From Deltaproteobacteria bacterium TL4 (GTDB lineage: Bacteria; SAR324; NAC60-12), in NCBI GenBank assembly GCA_051382335.1, contig JBBCAX010000182.1, positions 1-55,842 of the forward strand: DNA of 55,842 bases, given 5' to 3'. Made by a program: the position numbers and the translations under genes. The notes below the pieces were generated by a model. The model was not told the DNA's origin, did not search any database, and was given only the letters and a program-made list of their open reading frames with translations. Below are positions 1-11,281 of this stretch, piece after piece (within the stretch, counting starts at the first letter, position 1; each line of letters opens with the position of its first letter).

Positions 1-517
1 GTTCTATCGCAACCATACAAATTTCGGGATGGTAAGTTTCATCTTCACACATTGTAATTCGTTTATCGGGCATTTCTGAGCCCAGTTGTTCGATTTCCTC
101 TTGTGCAAACTCAGCCAATTTTGTCTCCATCTGGCCAGAAATCTTTTTTTGAGTCGTTTCCGAAGCGGCCACAAAAGCAGACAAGCCGCTTAAATGCAGA
201 AATTCACTCACATTATGAGTACTCGCAACTCCTACTTTTGTGAAAACAAAATGCAATGCAGTCATCAAACGATGGAGAAAACATAAACCAGAAGGACTTT
301 CAAAAAAGTGAATGACGTCAATATCACTCTCAATGTTATCTTTGCGAGCAAGCCAATTCTGCAAGGTAGAGCGTGGAACATCATTTTCTTGGCACCATTG
401 ACGTTGGCTCAATTCTCTGGTGCGTTGTTCAAAATCGATCACGTTGGCTACGATTTCTGAGCGTGACCAAAATCGTTTTGATGTTGATTCTTCTAAAGGA
501 TTAGAGTCTGATTGCAT
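1..517 (-). CDS. Transposase-like protein (DUF6399-type), N-terminal part; runs off window start
   Basis: Manual translation from ATG at 517: MQSDSNPLEESTSKRFWSRSEIV...VPRSTLQNWL (HTH-like)...FFESPSGLCFLHRL...CEDETYHPEICMVAIE, open to position 1. Not in the ORF track because no stop lies in the window. Confidence 0.7.
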   Translation of the reverse strand, partial: MQSDSNPLEESTSKRFWSRSEIVANVIDFEQRTRELSQRQWCQENDVPRSTLQNWLARKDNIESDIDVIHFFESPSGLCFLHRLMTALHFVFTKVGVASTHNVSEFLHLSGLSAFVAASETTQKKISGQMETKLAEFAQEEIEQLGSEMPDKRITMCEDETYHPEICMVAIE

Positions 518-635
518 GGTTCATTCGGGTGAGAGGGTTAACATGATTTTTGAAAAATTGTTAATACACTACTCCTGATTGAGTTGCAATTTCTACTAAT
601 TTTTAGACAGGGTGGCCGAACTTACGACCAAGCCC
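1..635 (-). mobile_element. Insertion sequence end; terminal inverted repeat at 614-635 (GGCCGAACTTACGACCAAGCCC)
   Basis: The same 22-mer is the right TIR of a TSD-flanked MITE at 11200-11221. It lies upstream of the transposase-like ORF, and radical SAM-like sequence starts right after it at 636. Confidence 0.75.
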
Positions 636-1823
636 CTCAATCCCAAGGCAGTCCTCTGTTTTTATGGATTATATGCTTCGATCAATGCCTCCTGTTTGAA
701 AGAAATGGGGGTTCATCTGGTTTTGGGCGGCGAATTTGAAGAGCCGTTATTACGATACTGCCTCAAGTATCAGGAAAACAAGACACTCTCTTCCAAGATT
801 CCGTTTGAATCCCATACGTATTTAGAGCGTATCAACTTTCAAATCCCTGACCGTCATGATCTGCCTGACCTGTCTCGATACGCCCAGCTCATCTTACCGG
901 GTTCTCGTAAAAAAACAGCTTATGTTGAAGCCAGCCGTGGCTGTAAACACCAATGCCGGCATTGTCCCATTGTTCCCGTTTATCAAAAACGTTTTTTTGT
1001 GATTCCTCAAGACGTAGTTTTAGCGGACATCCGGCAACAAGTCGCCAGCGGTGCGGAACACCTCACCTTTGGAGATCCTGATTTCTTCAACGGCATAGGC
1101 CATGCGCTGCCCATCGTACAGGCCTTACATGCGGAATTTCCAACGTTAACGTATGATGTGACCCTTAAAATAGAGCATCTTTTAAAACACCAAGCCTCGT
1201 TGTCTGTGCTGAAGGAAACCGGATGTTTGCTCATTACCAGCGCAGTAGAGTCCTTTGAAAATGAAACCCTTGAACTGTTACAAAAAGGCCATACGGTTGA
1301 GGACATTCGAACCGTAGTTCAGATTCTTCGGGAGCTCTCAATTACTTTAAATCCAACCTTCATTGCCTTCACACCGTGGACTACTTTGGCAAACTATCGT
1401 CATTTTTTAACGTCCCTGGTGGCTTTGGATTTAGTGGAACACGTTTCTCCGATACAACTGGCCATTCGCTTGCTGGTTCCCCATCAATCCCGACTGTTGG
1501 AGTGCCAGGAGTTACAACATTTTTTTGAAGTTTTTGATGAAAAACAATGGGTTTATCCTTGGAAAAACAGGGATCCCCGGATGGAGGAACTCCAGCTTCG
1601 TTTAGTCGCGCTGATCGCAAAAAATAGCGCGTCCAAACACTCACGGACCACGATTTTCAGTCAAGTTTGGAACATCGCTTCGGAATACGCGGAAGCCGAG
1701 AACCCGTTTCCACCTTTGCCGAATATTCCTCAACGAGCAACGGTTCCTTATCTCAATGAACCTTGGTATTGTTGAGCAGAACCCACCGAAGAGCAGGTGG
1801 CTCTTCTCAAAACGAGGCTGTAG
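636..1823 (+). pseudogene. CUAEP-tail radical SAM selenoprotein, 5'-truncated by IS insertion; UGA 1773-1775 read as Sec, true stop TAG 1821-1823
   Basis: CKHQCRHC (CxxxCxxC) motif. The frame continues through TGA as YLNEPWYC-U-AEPTEEQVALLKTRL*. The first 8 codons of the predicted ORF (612-635) are IS end sequence. Confidence 0.85.
1788..1806 (+). promoter_or_regulatory. Putative bacterial SECIS hairpin
   Basis: GAAGAGC-AGGTG-GCTCTTC: perfect 7-bp stem with G-rich loop, starting 12 nt after the UGA. Confidence 0.7.
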
Positions 1824-1940
1824 ACAGTCCTCTTTGATTGTGAATTAAAAAGGTGAGTCCACTCAATACGCAAAAAACGCTAAATTTATTTTCGTGTGTT
1901 TCGTGGACTGAAGCGTAAAAATAACCCCAAGCTTTCCTGG

Positions 1941-3209
1941 ATGGACATTATGGGAGAACAAAAACCCAGAATTCTTTTATTGATTCCCAATACAAGTTAC
2001 CGAACCACCGCTTTCTTGAGTGCGGGTTCCAAACTTGGGGTGGAGGTTGCCGTTGCGTCTGAAACGAAAAGATCACTGGCTGATCTTGCACCGGGAACCA
2101 CTTTAAAAATTGATTTCAGAGATTCAGGGCAAGCGGTAAAGGCAATCCTGGAATTTGCGGAATCTTATCCGTTGAAAGCGGTCCTGGGCGTTGATGATGA
2201 ATCGGTGATCTTGGCGGCGGAGGCCAGTTTAGCGTTGGGATTGGTTCATAATCCAATTGAGGCGGTCATGCTCACAAGAAATAAGGTTTTGATGCGTGAA
2301 AAATTATCGAAACATCCGCTTCTTGCGCCTCAATATTGGTTATTTTCTCTTCAGGATCAGGTTGCTGAAATGGCACAGACCGTTTCCTACCCTTGTGTTC
2401 TAAAGCCACTTTTTCTGTCCGCAAGTCAGGGGGTGATTCGTGCAAATAACCCCACCGATTTTCTTTCCGCATTTCAAATCATTGAATCCCTGCTCAACGA
2501 TCCGGCTATCGCAAAGCGAGGTCAGCAAAAAGCCCGGCAACTTTTGGTGGAATCCTATATCCCGGGTGCTGAAATTGCGCTCGAAGGCCTGCTCATTAAA
2601 GGCAAACTCAAGCGGTTGGCACTTTTTGATAAACCGGATACGCCGGAAGGTCCTTTTTTTCCTGAAACCATATATACCACCCCCTCCCAACTCTCGGCGG
2701 TTGTGCAACGTCAGGTGGATGAGCTCATCCAACAGGTTTCTGAAATTATCGGTTTGTATGAGGGTCCCATTCATGCGGAGATGCGCGTTAATGAACAAGG
2801 CCTCTGGCTGCTTGAAATCGCGGCACGTTCCATTGGAGGACTTTGTTCCAGAGTCCTTCAATTCACAGGAGGCATGTCGCTTGAGGAGTTAATTCTACGT
2901 CATGTTTTAGGAAGAAATCTTCACGCTGCGGAACGACAGGATCGTGCTTGTGGTGTGATGATGCTGAGCGTATCTCAAGCCGGTGTGTTGAAAGAAGTCA
3001 GGGGGCTTGAGGCAGCCAAACAAAAACCGGGGATTAAGGATGTTTTAATCACCATTGCGCCTGAGACGCCAGTGGAACCGTTACCCAAGGATGCCCGTTA
3101 TTTAGGCTTCATTTTTGCGGAAGGAGAGACGCCTCAGGAAGTTGAAGCAAACTTGCGGCAAGCGGAACAGTGTCTGGAAATTGTGATTGACGTCCCTGAC
3201 CATTTATAA
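1941..3209 (+). CDS. ATP-grasp domain ligase
   Basis: Motifs TRNK..MR, YPCVLKPLFLSASQGVIRA, LVESYIPGAE, HAEMR, LEIAARSIGG. Start at ATG 1941 or 1950. Confidence 0.85.
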   Translation: MDIMGEQKPRILLLIPNTSYRTTAFLSAGSKLGVEVAVASETKRSLADLAPGTTLKIDFRDSGQAVKAILEFAESYPLKAVLGVDDESVILAAEASLALGLVHNPIEAVMLTRNKVLMREKLSKHPLLAPQYWLFSLQDQVAEMAQTVSYPCVLKPLFLSASQGVIRANNPTDFLSAFQIIESLLNDPAIAKRGQQKARQLLVESYIPGAEIALEGLLIKGKLKRLALFDKPDTPEGPFFPETIYTTPSQLSAVVQRQVDELIQQVSEIIGLYEGPIHAEMRVNEQGLWLLEIAARSIGGLCSRVLQFTGGMSLEELILRHVLGRNLHAAERQDRACGVMMLSVSQAGVLKEVRGLEAAKQKPGIKDVLITIAPETPVEPLPKDARYLGFIFAEGETPQEVEANLRQAEQCLEIVIDVPDHL

Positions 3210-3313
3210 CCTTGATTCTATCAAGTTCAGATGTCAAGCATCACTATAGACGTTCAGACATCAGAACGACAACGCTTTGTTTCGTTTTACTATCCTTTTT
3301 CCTTTTTAGTGCT

Positions 3314-4645
3314 ATGGTCACCGCGAAAAGCAGTATCAAACAGGGGAATGCTGCCAGAAAAAAGCCATTAAACTATTTGAATACCAAGTTTGATATTTAT
3401 AATGTCAGATGTCTCCCTGATGTTGGAGGTCTGTACTATAACGAATTTCGACAACGAGTGGATGAAATCAAAAATCACTCTGGAAGCATCCTCAATTCAG
3501 CGACTAAAGCGTTTAGCGCCTTACTCTTTTCCAAAGCAGAGAAACAAGAACAGGCCAAGTCTTTTGCTCGTCGAAGCGGACTCGATATTGTGGATTTTGA
3601 GCCTAGCCAAAGTAATACGGAAATTGTGGAACAATTAGGAAAAAATCCGCTTCAACACCGTCAACGTGTCACACTTGCGACTAAGGTTCATAACTCGGTG
3701 AAGTCTCTGCCTGTCGAGCAAATGCGCCAAGTCTTAATGCAAATTTCGGTTCCTATGGGCTTTGGTGAATTTGATGTAGGCAACATGAAATTACTGGCTT
3801 CGGGAAACCGGAGATATAAAGCCAAACTCTTGATCCTGTTTCACCATGAAAAACAAAAAATCATGAGGGCTACAGGAGGAAGCAGTTATGAGCAAGACCC
3901 TCATTTCCAATGTTTGCTCCGAAACGAACAGTTACTGAAAAAATTAATGGAAAGGTCCATTGATAAAATTCAAACTGCGGATTTTGTCATCTCGCTCAAC
4001 TTGTCAACCATCACCAAAGTCCTGGATGGAACCTTGAATATTCCGAAAGGGACAAGTATGGAGGATAAACGCCGTTCTTTGGAAAGGAACCTGGCCGGAA
4101 TTGTGATGACGCTCATGGAAGTTGAATTTCTTCACCCTGAGTTGATTCGTATCATCGAACAGTATATGCGGCCTTTGAACCCTGCGAGTCCACTGTCTCA
4201 TTATGTGGAGGCCTGTCTTTGGAGCAATCAATTAAAAATCCAGACCATCCACGAAGAATTTGCCTCAGGTAAAACAGAATCGCTAAACGCCATCGAAAGT
4301 AATATGATTCAGGAGGAGTTTTCGAAAGCGAATATCGAAAAAGTCATGCGAGGTTTATTAAAAAATTGTCTGACGGCTTATGCGACCAGTCTCAAGTTAT
4401 TGCCCAATCTCAGCAATATGAAGCAAATGCAGAAAAAAATTCTGATTGAACATGCTAAAATGTGTCTCTATGCCTATTCCTTGAAGATGCAACTGAAAGC
4501 CTCAGACGCTGTGATCAAAAGTATTATTTTGAGCGGGTCGAAGTCCTTGAGAAAAGCCGAGTATACACCTGAAAATGATAAAATGAATTTAATCAGCAAC
4601 TATAAAATCATCTTGGAAGATTTTGGGATGCCCTCTCCTTTTTAA
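3314..4645 (+). CDS. Hypothetical protein, probably alpha-helical
   Basis: Long ORF (track 3212-4645); ATG 3314 is the more plausible start; no recognisable motif. Confidence 0.7.
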   Translation: MVTAKSSIKQGNAARKKPLNYLNTKFDIYNVRCLPDVGGLYYNEFRQRVDEIKNHSGSILNSATKAFSALLFSKAEKQEQAKSFARRSGLDIVDFEPSQSNTEIVEQLGKNPLQHRQRVTLATKVHNSVKSLPVEQMRQVLMQISVPMGFGEFDVGNMKLLASGNRRYKAKLLILFHHEKQKIMRATGGSSYEQDPHFQCLLRNEQLLKKLMERSIDKIQTADFVISLNLSTITKVLDGTLNIPKGTSMEDKRRSLERNLAGIVMTLMEVEFLHPELIRIIEQYMRPLNPASPLSHYVEACLWSNQLKIQTIHEEFASGKTESLNAIESNMIQEEFSKANIEKVMRGLLKNCLTAYATSLKLLPNLSNMKQMQKKILIEHAKMCLYAYSLKMQLKASDAVIKSIILSGSKSLRKAEYTPENDKMNLISNYKIILEDFGMPSPF

Positions 4646-4962: not shown

Positions 4963-7900
4963 ATGATTAAACAGGCATTCGCATTATTTCAAGATCTCTT
5001 TGGTTTGTTTTTTGTCACCTCAGGCTGCGTCTCTGTTCTTTTGGGAGGATTCATCGTGGGGATCGAGTCCCCGGCTTTTGGTGCGGAGCCTGACATTATC
5101 TACACCTGGAATCGCCAATACTATGGCAAACTCAATGGAGAACGAAGACTGCTGTATACCCGTTCTTTCAACCGGAGTCAGTTGGCTTTCGCGGATATTG
5201 ATGGAGATGGAGTGGATGAATTGTTTGTGGGTAAGGAAAATGGTACTGTCGCCTTTTTTGTCAATAAGGGGACGCCTGAACAGCCCCAATTTGAATTACA
5301 AGAGGAAGACTATAAAATATGGCGCCAGGACGTGGACGATAATCAGCACACCAAACGAATAGAAACGAGTATTCATGTGGGTGGAAACGCGGCTCCTGTG
5401 TTTGTAGATATTGATGATGATGGGGATTTGGATTTGTTCATTGGTTCAAAAGATGGAAGCCTCTTTTTCTACGAAAACCAAGGGCATAAACTTTATCCGT
5501 CCTTTGAATTAGCCTCCCCCTTATACATGGGACTCCGACCTGGTACCAATACGGTGGTCCGCTTTGCGGATGTTAATGCCGATAGAGCGTTAGATATGCT
5601 TGTGGGGACAGGTGAGGGGAAAGTTTTACTGTATACTAATGCTGGAAGGATGAATAAAGCTTATTTTTGTCAGGGGAAAATAGATTCCATAACCACCGAA
5701 CCGAATTGCCCTGGACCTCCCGTGGTGATTGATGACATCCGACCTGACATCGACGCGGCACCAGAGTGGGTTGATTGGAATCATGATAACAAACTGGATC
5801 TGGTTGTTGGAAAATCAGATGGGAAAATGAATTTTTATGTAAACCGGGGAACTTATTTTGAGCCGAAGTGGGAATTGGAATCAAACCGGTTTTTATTCCT
5901 GGATTCAGGCGGATTTGCGATTCCACGATTTTATGATCTCAACCGTGATGGTTTTCCTGAACTGTTCATCGGAACCTCCTCTTCTACGGTGATTTACTAT
6001 GAAAACCAGGAAGTCATCCGTCACAGCCTGGAAAGTATTCAGGAGGTAGATTGGACGTTGTTTAACTGGGAACGTCCCCCAACCGAGCTGCTGAGTAAAG
6101 CCTGTGATTTATTAGGCGGCATTTTGGTCTGTTTGCCTCAATTGGGACAAGCCCTTAACCTCCCCGACAGTCTTACGCTCAAAGGAGATTTTAATAGCCT
6201 TGCGAACGCTCTGTTGAAAGCTGACAGTAGCTTCAATCATACGGTTCCGATCCCCGAAATCAAAGCGACAACAGAAGGAAGTGGTGTTCCTCCGAAGGGA
6301 CAAGGGACTTCCCCCGCAGGGCAGATCAACACTCGCGCGCCTTCGTTTCAGGCAAATACCAATGTGCCAAGTGCCCTCCCTCCCGCTGGTGTCCAGGGCA
6401 CACCTCCCGCCGCAAAACCCGGTCAGGGAACGGGAGACTCAAAAAAAGAAAGTCTCCTTGTAACCACACGCAATCGGCTGTGGCTGGTGTCAAAAAATTA
6501 CCTGGAATTTGGTGAATTCATCCCTAATGATCGGCATACGGTCATTACGAGTGGAGATTGGAACAATGATGGGAAAGTGGATCTCTTGTTAGGAAGTCTC
6601 TCTGGAAGACTCTCTGCTTATCAAAATAAAGGGACAGATACCGCGGAAGATTGGTCTGCTATTGCAGAACCGATATTTGCTCCAAACCAGCGAGAACAGA
6701 GTGCGCCCACGCTAGGAGATATTGATGGGGATGGGGATTTGGACCTCCTCGTTGGTAATCGTGCTGGACGTTTGGAACTCATAAGGAACACTGGCAGTAA
6801 ACAAAGTCCTGTCTGGAAAATTGAAACGCTTTTTTATTCACAAATTGATGTAGGAAACAATAGTATTCCAACCTTGTGGGATATAGATCAGGATGGAGAC
6901 CTGGATTTATTTGTGGGAAATAGTCGGGGACGGATTATTTTCTATCAAAACCAGGGTAATAAAAACACTCCCCAATTTGTCATTAAAAGTACACGGTTTT
7001 CAAAAGTGCTTGTGAGCAACAACGCCGCACCGGCTTTTTTCTACTGGGGCGAGGATCCTCACCCCGATTTACTCATTGGAGCACGAAACGGACAAATCCA
7101 ATTGGTTAGCAACAATCCACTCCCTGGCTATCCGGTCACTCAGGGGTGGCAACTGGAAACCCCCAACTGGACTGAACTGGAAACACAAAGCTTCAGCACT
7201 CCTCATTTCATGGATCTGAATAAAGATCAGAAGCCTGATTTACTCATGGGAAGCGGTAACGGGAAAGTGCTGGTCTGGCTCAATGGAGGTTTTGAAAAGG
7301 TTGCGGATCTTCCTCCGGAACCTGCCGTCACAACCAGTAATACGGTTGATAAAGAGCCAGAAGAAACGGTCGTGGAAAATGAAGACTTACCTGAGGTGGT
7401 TGTAGAAGAGGAATTGACGGAAGAAGAACACGCCTCAGAGCGTGAAGTAGAAGAACCGCCTAATATTCCCTTTGACCCTGTCTATACGCTTACGAGTAAA
7501 AAATATGGGGATTTAGCTTTTGGAAAACGGGCGGTGCCCGTGTTTTTTGATATTGAGGGTGATAATGACCTGGACTTGTTTGTTGGAAATAAAGAGGGAG
7601 AAATTCATCAGTACTTGAATGAAGGAACCCCGACCGCTCCGCATTGGGTTCTGGTGACTAAAAAGTTTTTAGATTACGAGGGCGGAAAAAACGCTACGCC
7701 CTTATTTGCGGACTTGGATAATGATGGAGATCTGGATTTCCTGGTAGGTAATGAACAAGGTGAGATGACTTATTGGGAAAATAAAGGTTCGCCAGAATCT
7801 GCCGAGTTTGTCCCCAATCCCACCCCCTTTGCCGGAGTAACGGGAGGTCGTAACGTCAGACCGGCGGTGTTTGATATTAATGCCGATGGCGCGAATGATG

Positions 7901-8286
7901 TGATTCTGGGAAATTTTCAGGGCTATTTACGGGTTTATCTCCAAATCCGCGGAGCCAATGGATTTCGCATGGAACTCCATCATCGGGAATATATGGGTCT
8001 TGATGTTGGTTTAGGGGCAACTCCCACCTTTGCGGATATCAACAACAGCCAGACTTTGGATTTGATCATTGGCTCAGACCAGGGGAAACTGTTTGCGTAT
8101 AATCAGGATACGATCACTCCCAATAATCAATGGGGCTGGAGTCTCAATAAGCGCTATTTTAAAGACTTGGTTCTGCCCCTTGGCTGTTTTCCCGTCTTTG
8201 TGGATCTAGATCAGGATGGCGATGTGGATATGTTTATTGGTAGTGATGAAGGGACGATCTATTTCTATGAGAACAAGGCCAAATAG
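4963..8286 (+). CDS. Secreted FG-GAP/VCBS repeat (Ca-binding beta-propeller) protein
   Basis: N-terminal hydrophobic signal. Many DxDxDGDxDLxxG repeats in three blocks separated by Pro/Gly-rich and Glu-rich linkers. Confidence 0.85.
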   Translation: MIKQAFALFQDLFGLFFVTSGCVSVLLGGFIVGIESPAFGAEPDIIYTWNRQYYGKLNGERRLLYTRSFNRSQLAFADIDGDGVDELFVGKENGTVAFFVNKGTPEQPQFELQEEDYKIWRQDVDDNQHTKRIETSIHVGGNAAPVFVDIDDDGDLDLFIGSKDGSLFFYENQGHKLYPSFELASPLYMGLRPGTNTVVRFADVNADRALDMLVGTGEGKVLLYTNAGRMNKAYFCQGKIDSITTEPNCPGPPVVIDDIRPDIDAAPEWVDWNHDNKLDLVVGKSDGKMNFYVNRGTYFEPKWELESNRFLFLDSGGFAIPRFYDLNRDGFPELFIGTSSSTVIYYENQEVIRHSLESIQEVDWTLFNWERPPTELLSKACDLLGGILVCLPQLGQALNLPDSLTLKGDFNSLANALLKADSSFNHTVPIPEIKATTEGSGVPPKGQGTSPAGQINTRAPSFQANTNVPSALPPAGVQGTPPAAKPGQGTGDSKKESLLVTTRNRLWLVSKNYLEFGEFIPNDRHTVITSGDWNNDGKVDLLLGSLSGRLSAYQNKGTDTAEDWSAIAEPIFAPNQREQSAPTLGDIDGDGDLDLLVGNRAGRLELIRNTGSKQSPVWKIETLFYSQIDVGNNSIPTLWDIDQDGDLDLFVGNSRGRIIFYQNQGNKNTPQFVIKSTRFSKVLVSNNAAPAFFYWGEDPHPDLLIGARNGQIQLVSNNPLPGYPVTQGWQLETPNWTELETQSFSTPHFMDLNKDQKPDLLMGSGNGKVLVWLNGGFEKVADLPPEPAVTTSNTVDKEPEETVVENEDLPEVVVEEELTEEEHASEREVEEPPNIPFDPVYTLTSKKYGDLAFGKRAVPVFFDIEGDNDLDLFVGNKEGEIHQYLNEGTPTAPHWVLVTKKFLDYEGGKNATPLFADLDNDGDLDFLVGNEQGEMTYWENKGSPESAEFVPNPTPFAGVTGGRNVRPAVFDINADGANDVILGNFQGYLRVYLQIRGANGFRMELHHREYMGLDVGLGATPTFADINNSQTLDLIIGSDQGKLFAYNQDTITPNNQWGWSLNKRYFKDLVLPLGCFPVFVDLDQDGDVDMFIGSDEGTIYFYENKAK

Positions 8287-10985: not shown

Positions 10986-11027
10986 TCTTTTGCCTCCTTC
11001 ATCATCATTCTATGGGTTTAGGGGCTC

Positions 11028-11281
11028 GGCTACCCCTTAAAGCGGGACATTGGTAGGCGGGGATTACATGCCCCGCTTTTCTGAGCGTTGAGTTTGCCGG
11101 GGTTGGTCATATTTTCGGCCAGGGGTAGCCTTGGGTTTCGCCCCGAGGAACAATGTGCTCGGTATCCCCTGGGACGAAACCCAGGGCTACCATCAAAATG
11201 GCCGAACTTACGACCAAGCCCAGTTTGCCGGACACGTAGTTCCGACCTACCATCGAGGTGTCCCGGATTAAACGAGTAGCC
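11028..11281. mobile_element. MITE with GGCTAC-type TIRs (outer element)
   Basis: Left GGCTACCCCTTAAAGCGGGACA; right end reverse-complements to GGCTACTCGTTTAATCCGGGACA. Flanks AGGGGCTC / AGGGACTC match 7/8 (TSD). Confidence 0.65.
11099..11221. mobile_element. 123-bp MITE with the same TIR as the window-start IS
   Basis: 22-bp TIRs at 11099-11120 and 11200-11221 (18/22 match). Perfect 8-bp TSD AGTTTGCC at 11091-11098 and 11222-11229. Internal hairpin GGTAGCCTTGGGTTTCG...CGAAACCCAGGGCTACC. Confidence 0.85.

Follow-up and report, generated by a model that had tools for sequence, protein, structure and literature searches.

ArsL is the closest characterised relative of the protein described here. 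It cleaves the C-gamma–S bond of SAM and joins the aminocarboxypropyl (ACP) group to As(III), which is bound by a CCxxC tail; deletion of the tail abolishes the product and leaves SAM cleavage intact, and an accidental C–S bond was also recorded, homocysteine sulfinate being formed from dithionite (accessible parts of 10.1101/2024.02.01.577332 and 10.64898/2026.04.29.721666). SAM is reported to be bound canonically (accessible part of 10.64898/2026.04.29.721666). The tail binds no cluster, and among CxxxCxxC enzymes ArsL alone is described as generating an ACP radical from SAM (10.1101/2024.02.01.577332). In its accessible part, PMC8552651 mentions neither selenocysteine nor a ligase.

A related family, NF040546, ends in a CUAEP or CCAEP tail and is described as an uncharacterised CU-motif selenoprotein in the accessible part of the Haft preprint (10.1101/2022.07.06.499078), in agreement with the initial annotation of the DNA studied here, which had called its reaction uncharacterised. 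We found no biochemistry for the family, and no report on its reaction or on its pairing with a ligase, in a literature search that took in few subscription journals. The same annotation presented the gene as a hidden selenoprotein; the family had already been named for its selenocysteine (Sec), and what is new is a broken member. Two further systems serve for comparison, the L-amino-acid ligases BL00235 and BacD/YwfE and the DUF6399 (PF19936) elements; no paper naming DUF6399 was found in the literature searched.

The window, that is, the whole stretch of DNA analysed, comprises 55,842 nucleotides of Deltaproteobacteria bacterium TL4 (GCA_051382335.1, contig JBBCAX010000182.1). The features on which the comparison rests are the following.

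1..517, minus strand: 5' part of a DUF6399-type transposase gene, running off the contig start and antisense to the radical SAM gene (ATG at 517; homology).
610..635, minus strand: 26-bp terminal inverted repeat of the insertion sequence (IS) (identical 26-mers at both junctions).
636..643, plus strand: 8-bp target-site duplication CTCAATCC (identical to the 8 bases before the IS end on contig C363).
636..1823, plus strand: 3' part, about codons 74-470, of the gene for a CUAEP-tail radical SAM selenoprotein (NF040546).
942..965, plus strand: CxxxCxxC [4Fe-4S] motif CKHQCRHC (sequence).
1770..1775, plus strand: Cys-Sec dyad TGT TGA (interchange of TGA and Cys codons among homologous loci).
1788..1806, plus strand: predicted SECIS hairpin with a 7-bp stem and the loop AGGUG (covariation; contrast between TGA and Cys genes).
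1950..3209, plus strand: intact ATP-grasp protein of the L-amino-acid-ligase type (PF18130, PF13535 and PF18603 over cut-off).
2844-2846, plus strand: invariant Cys299 (TGT) in the ARxIGGxC loop of the ligase (aligned ligases).

The gene derives from the NF040546 family. Its 3' part alone scores 508.4 bits (cut-off 500) over profile positions 73-467 of 468, and the 5' part, which lies on C363, covers positions 1-78 with 94 bits more. It shares with the family the CxxxCxxC motif, the W[YF]C-U/C-AEP tail and a length of 470 codons across the empty site, compared with 468 positions in the model. The three motif Cys are invariant in 66 homologues; outside motif and tail, the invariant Cys are limited to C84 and C275. 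The radical SAM domain PF04055 is found at 37 bits (cut-off 29.5), and the B12-binding domain PF02310 of an intact member scores 25.7 bits, below its cut-off of 32.1. A structure model of an intact relative has a pLDDT of 91, with a confidence of about 63-78 in the tail; its closest solved folds are AprD4 (first), OxsB and TsrM. A PDB sequence search returned AprD4 alone (E 8e-6) and no structure of ArsL or of the CUAEP family. The copy in the window differs from the family in being split by the IS after about codon 76. Residues 1-76 are detached, a single full-length polypeptide with the N-terminal B12-binding-like domain is not encoded, and what this allele specifies falls short of a whole member. 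Sixteen of the copies in the 17 family-bearing relatives are continuous, and that of G034 is broken at two contig ends.

The initial annotation noted that the listed reading frame ends at the first tail Cys, read the following TGA as a Sec codon and pointed to a perfect hairpin 12 nt beyond it. The sequence is exactly as it described: TGT (1770-1772) and TGA (1773-1775) are followed in frame by GCA GAA CCC ACC GAA GAG CAG and onward to TAG at 1821-1823, with the tail C-U-AEPTEEQ, so that the read-through translation ends ...NEPWYC-U-AEPTEEQVALLKTRL. The hairpin GAAGAGC-AGGTG-GCTCTTC begins at 1788, with stems at 1788-1794 and 1800-1806, and its loop begins at a distance of 20 nt from the UGA, inside the 16-37 nt range that the accessible part of PMC10778597 reports for SECIS loops of bacteria. 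The genome has 1686 frames of 150 codons or more that end in TGA; 15 of them have a perfect 7-bp hairpin starting 10-17 nt past the stop and one, the radical SAM gene, has CAG[GT]T[GT]G as a loop motif at the same offset; hairpin plus loop motif are therefore more than chance.

The second codon of the dyad in 95 homologous loci is TGA (73), TGC (11) or TGT (7), and the four with no tail match were left out, which leaves 91 loci (73 TGA, 18 Cys) for comparison. AEP follows the dyad in all 18 loci with a Cys codon in place of TGA, which gives the CCAEP that the initial annotation had expected. Neither of the findings that it named as refuting, homologues that stop at WYC with no conserved AEP or a genome without selA, selB or tRNA-Sec, was observed. 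The loop motif is kept in 64 of the 73 TGA genes versus 3 of the 18 Cys genes, and the mean local hairpin energy is -10.2 versus -5.3 kcal/mol; since the loci are related, p-values for this contrast are overstated. A cultured TGA carrier, Thermomicrobium roseum DSM 5159, reads WFC-U-AEP, and the sequence downstream of its TGA has no loop motif at the usual offset. The stem covaries as well, with 14 two-sided changes in 16 sequences of the same order, a number matched by none of 500 shuffles; the structure was drawn from one of these 16 sequences, which are kin and not independent. Every one of the 17 family-bearing relatives shows one TGA. The machinery for Sec is complete in the genome, as the earlier reading needed, with selA (C168), selB (C250), selD (C310) and tRNA-Sec (selC, C154) all over cut-off, and selA was detected in 39 of the 40 relatives. 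SelD, too, is a selenoprotein in this genome, with CG-U-AAK and a strong hairpin downstream (G000:C310:7917-8840).

Could the UGA be a true stop followed by a chance hairpin? When the 40 nt that include the UGA are folded, the minimum is a competing hairpin that sequesters the UGA (-14.9 kcal/mol, compared with -10.4 for the SECIS-like hairpin). The latter becomes the energy minimum once the UGA and at least 6 downstream bases are omitted, which we infer mimics a ribosome sitting on the codon. The contrast between TGA and Cys genes is weak in the fixed 7-bp register (at least 5 pairs in 49/73 versus 7/18), and 107 of 120 database matches to the protein, one of them the window's own, end at the first Cys; the other 13 read CCAEP. 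Against a true stop stand the replacement of TGA by Cys with AEP always next, the loop-motif and energy contrasts and the full sel gene set, and we regard it as scarcely credible. The in-frame UGA is very likely decoded as Sec. Judged from sequence, the interchange of UGA and Cys, the SECIS, the sel genes and the IS with its target duplication together make up a reading that we hold with near certainty. Databases usually miss the Sec of this family, as the 107 truncated matches illustrate.

The initial annotation also treated 636-1823 as the protein. The frame stands, but this is not the whole gene, position 636 being the first base past the IS. The interrupting element has the inverted repeats, target duplication, transposase and many copies of an insertion sequence. 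Its transposase part in the window is 41% identical over 135 aa to a DUF6399-annotated protein, on which PF19936 was confirmed, and the C-terminal part of the transposase lies on C96:177-605 beside the other IS end, with PF19936 over cut-off. An end of that other type lies at G000:C363:102-127. The genome holds 17 ends of the window type and 13 of the other, or 13-17 copies by end count, and 6 sites have IS flanks that match over exactly 8 bp, with no site matching over 7, 9 or 10 bp. The middle of the IS is absent from the assembly next to either end. Another copy paired by its 8-bp duplication (G000:C401:39745 and G000:C198:20290) breaks into a frame of 714 codons or more; the remaining four paired sites are found at frame edges or close to them. 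A repeat of about 125 bp at about 11098-11221 of the window (minus strand, its end at 11221) has 23 of the inverted repeat's 26 bases at its start and looks like a non-autonomous (MITE-like) derivative of the IS; it has 12 copies by repeat search and about two dozen by BLAST, and is itself nested in another short repeat present in many copies (about 11025-11280).

The 5' part of the gene lies outside the window, at G000:C363:357-128 on the minus strand, directly behind an nfuA-type gene (C363:1297-368) with rhodanese, Fe-S_biosyn and NifU domains. Across the empty site the frame has 470 codons, and its sole internal stop is the Sec codon, at codon 455. Of the 127 columns that reach at least 95% conservation, 22 fall within the detached residues 1-77, and in the model of the intact relative these residues make up strands one to three of the N-terminal domain. 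The two halves keep 150 of 161 conserved columns (family range 134-161, median 158), and because of this the insertion looks recent. Decay of the halves was considered and not seen, and a recent insertion accounts for its lack. No second copy of the radical SAM gene was found in the genome, and the split allele is therefore likely a recent knock-out. We think it highly probable, judging from the sequence, that the allele is non-functional and that no full-length enzyme is made from this copy; with the gene interrupted, the full-length protein is probably absent in this organism. The insertion is perhaps also polar on the ligase gene.

The allele might nevertheless work, if a shortened protein suffices, if the IS is present in only part of the population or if two contigs were wrongly joined. 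In the 3' part the frame is still open, cluster motif, Sec codon and SECIS are all preserved, and the family cut-off is cleared without the 5' half; both halves together retain the conserved columns given above. The ligase gene is intact, and candidate starts exist at GTG 612 (inside the inverted repeat), TTG 696 and ATG 705. Against this, the detached part carries the 22 highly conserved columns, a consensus scan of 300-3400 found no plus-strand promoter-like site, both flanks run into IS sequence with no contig spanning the empty site, and the exact 8-bp duplication with the in-frame 470-codon empty site favours a true, recent insertion. We consider a working allele improbable and take the knock-out reading forward. 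The radical SAM gene appears dispensable in the lineage, since 23 of the 40 relatives have no match and the copy here is split.

By sequence, the CUAEP family is a sister of ArsL. The 3' part scores 245.5 bits against the ArsL family NF040542, below the cut-off of 450, and the next family scores 38 bits. Identity to ArsL is about 33-37%, and 36.5-36.9% over 88% of a homologue among the RCCLKC-tail matches listed; the two-domain layout is the same, and the adjacent CC of ArsL aligns on the CU of the CUAEP tail. An ArsL-type protein is identical to the CUAEP family in 75 of 127 conserved columns and differs in 52, including PMHT versus PLFD and the residue before the third cluster Cys. The tails differ too. 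That of ArsL, RCCLKC, has three As-binding Cys (CCxxC), whereas the CUAEP tail offers two ligands, Cys and Sec, lacks the third Cys and sits about 50 residues further out. The initial annotation had inferred that the Cys-Sec dyad is a redox or metal(loid)-binding arm; for a metal(loid)-binding role, which would be a prediction for the CUAEP family, the As(III)-binding tail of ArsL, not named there, offers a precedent. ArsL is found with ArsM and ArsQ in an ars operon; the CUAEP family instead has a conserved ligase and NfuA or YggX.

Genes of an ars operon (arsM, arsQ, arsR, transporters) did not recur beside the CUAEP family: none of the ars families was found among 67 neighbour representatives, which cover recurrent neighbours only (from 116 recurrent clusters plus another clustering), and nine queries from an ArsL-type locus gave, ligases aside, only one ArsR-like match in 110 loci. 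That ArsL-type locus (L145:2635-3858, Priestia plasmid NZ_CP064098.1) contains a ligase-type ATP-grasp gene, arsR, an aquaporin and a permease, with no ArsM in the 13 kb shown, and is possibly an arsinothricin-hydroxy dipeptide pathway. Its ligase was considered as an orthologue of the partner ligase and rejected (22% identity, no GGxC). Elsewhere in the genomes, an ArsM-like gene occurs in 12/17 family-bearing versus 5/23 other relatives (8 versus 3 over cut-off). It was not found in 5 of the 17, including the single-contig G006, and the ArsM matches of the genome studied here are below cut-off. Ten below-cut-off ArsM-like methyltransferases in 8 genomes have one in-frame TGA (e.g. G030:C94, G010:C22, G004:C23, G028:C22) and possibly contain Sec. 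Two Bryobacterales loci (L086:8168-9493 and L103) have a gene for a SAM-dependent methyltransferase (Methyltransf_9) after that of the radical SAM protein.

The gene downstream of the radical SAM gene shares its three ligase domains with BL00235 and BacD/YwfE, and BL00235 (3vot) is its closest solved relative (E 3e-32). Where BacD has Met334, two residues after Trp332, it differs in having a Cys that is invariant and in one genome is replaced by Sec; Trp332 is described as a substrate-pocket residue (accessible part of PMC6920838). The invariant residue, Cys299, is Cys in 70 of 70 aligned rows. Its place in the pocket is presumably that of BacD Met334, with which it aligns. The ligase in the window was considered as a selenoprotein and rejected, its codon being TGT. 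One other ligase, L147 (G084:C77:40932-42170, minus strand), has TGA at the invariant Cys (SIGGL-U) with a 9-bp hairpin about 10 nt downstream and is, on this sequence evidence, a selenoprotein; it is the only one with TGA among 14 ligases in a second class, and there is none in 72 loci of the other set. Its genome has no NF040546 match.

Ligase and radical SAM gene are inherited together. The ligase is present in 17/17 of the relatives with the radical SAM gene versus 4/23 of those without, and one of these four has an internal TAA. The second class, 151 genomes centred on a Caldilineaceae genome, repeats the pattern with the two genes mostly unlinked: 12 genomes have both, one the enzyme only and two the ligase only, so that the ligase is found in 12/13 genomes with the enzyme and in 2/138 without it. 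No radical SAM remnant was detected at E <0.1 near the orphan ligases of G011, G017, G018, G023 and G084. L131 (G017:C76:29799-32747) has nfuA and the ligase pointing towards each other at a distance of 802 bp and shows no trace of a radical SAM gene, which suggests that the latter was lost in the G017 lineage. Further along the window lie a 477-aa frame with no Pfam or NCBIfam match (3212-4645) and a 1107-aa FG-GAP repeat protein (4963-8286), neither of them recurrent beside the module.

The neighbourhood was summarised for 80 named loci, the best of 577 and rich in Acidobacteriota. The ligase occurs in 54 of these 80, YggX in 40, aconitase in 28, NfuA in 10, DUF169 in 8 and SufC in 6; no locus has both YggX and NfuA. 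Almost all of the aconitase link is due to related Acidobacteriota loci, and suf and Rrf2 genes are seen in a few loci. YggX was not found in the genome studied here. A dedication of nfuA to the module was rejected for this genome's family, in which it is single copy in 24/24, and nfuA is present in 40/40 relatives with or without the enzyme. The fusion of rhodanese and NfuA is likewise general in this family. In four relatives nfuA stays beside the ligase with the radical SAM gene elsewhere or missing.

Because ArsL is the closest characterised family, we propose that the intact form of the UGA-Sec enzyme split here would transfer the ACP group of SAM to a soft atom held by the tail, a reading to which we give an even chance. 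The enzyme would cleave the C-gamma–S bond, releasing methylthioadenosine, and form an amino acid with the ACP group on a heteroatom (As, S or Se); this step, argued by analogy, seems to us just as likely to be right as wrong. An acceptor that needs two ligands would suit, since the tail offers two in place of the three Cys of ArsL. A tentative first guess for the acceptor is trivalent methylarsenite, and a somewhat less likely second is a sulfur or selenium atom bound to the tail. The partner ligase would then grip the product through its pocket Cys or Sec and join a second amino acid to give a dipeptide; granted the ArsL-like step, we give this about an even chance. NfuA or YggX would keep the [4Fe-4S] cluster loaded, YggX being known for the servicing of such clusters. 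In favour of the proposal are the co-occurrence of the ligase and its pocket Cys or Sec, the kinship with ArsL, the uneven distribution of the ArsM-like gene and the ligase beside an ArsL-type gene. Against it are the 52 differing columns, the absent third tail Cys, the lack of recurrent ars genes nearby, the five family-bearing relatives in which ArsM was not found, the low identity of the ligase found next to the ArsL-type gene, the lack of an NF040546 match in the genome that carries the Sec ligase, and the presence of nfuA in all 40 relatives regardless of the enzyme. To our knowledge, ACP chemistry has no signature among the residues.

The Fe-S neighbours keep two other functions of the intact enzyme alive. 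One is a canonical 5'-deoxyadenosyl-radical enzyme, possibly using cobalamin and engaged in Fe-S housekeeping, in which the Cys-Sec tail holds no substrate and serves as a redox arm, with a cluster, a protein thiol or a product being recycled by it. YggX, aconitase, NfuA and SufC at the frequencies given above agree with this, as do the alternation of YggX with NfuA, the occasional suf and Rrf2 genes, the folds of AprD4, OxsB and TsrM and the four relatives in which nfuA has stayed by the ligase. It is nonetheless rather unlikely: ArsL is far closer in sequence (245 bits versus 38 or fewer), the B12-binding match of the intact member falls short of its cut-off, the aconitase link is mostly a matter of one related group of loci, and the ligase is left unexplained.

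The other, to which we give clearly less weight, is the insertion of sulfur or selenium, either from a persulfide or perselenide on the tail or from a sacrificial Fe-S cluster rebuilt by NfuA, the product being either an amino acid resembling homocysteine or a residue modified in a partner protein. NfuA serves the sulfur-inserting enzymes MiaB and lipoyl synthase (accessible part of PMC8593673), the NfuA upstream of the gene here has a rhodanese-like domain, ArsL itself can form a C–S bond by accident, and arsenic genes do not recur nearby. Yet beyond motif and tail only C84 and C275 are conserved, which leaves no extra Cys cluster for an auxiliary Fe-S centre; the tail of ArsL binds no cluster, and the rhodanese-NfuA fusion occurs in the genome's family whether or not the enzyme is present.

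In summary, the window holds the 3' part of a known type of selenoprotein gene, split by an insertion sequence, and its copy is the wrong one to study. Returning to ACP transfer to a tail-held atom, a wider reading, which we regard as speculative, is that a radical SAM selenoenzyme and a ligase with a Cys or Sec in its pocket form a widespread, unrecognised pathway of two enzymes, in which an aminocarboxypropyl-metalloid amino acid, for example trivalent arsinothricin made directly from methylarsenite, is turned into a dipeptide. The pathway would be spread over SAR324, Acidobacteriota, Chloroflexota, NC10 and Gemmatimonadota, and the genome studied here would be a natural knock-out of its first step. 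If this is true, the chemistry of ArsL would be extended by a far more widespread sister family, one that has a Cys-Sec tail and is inherited along with a ligase, and an unknown metabolite would be indicated.
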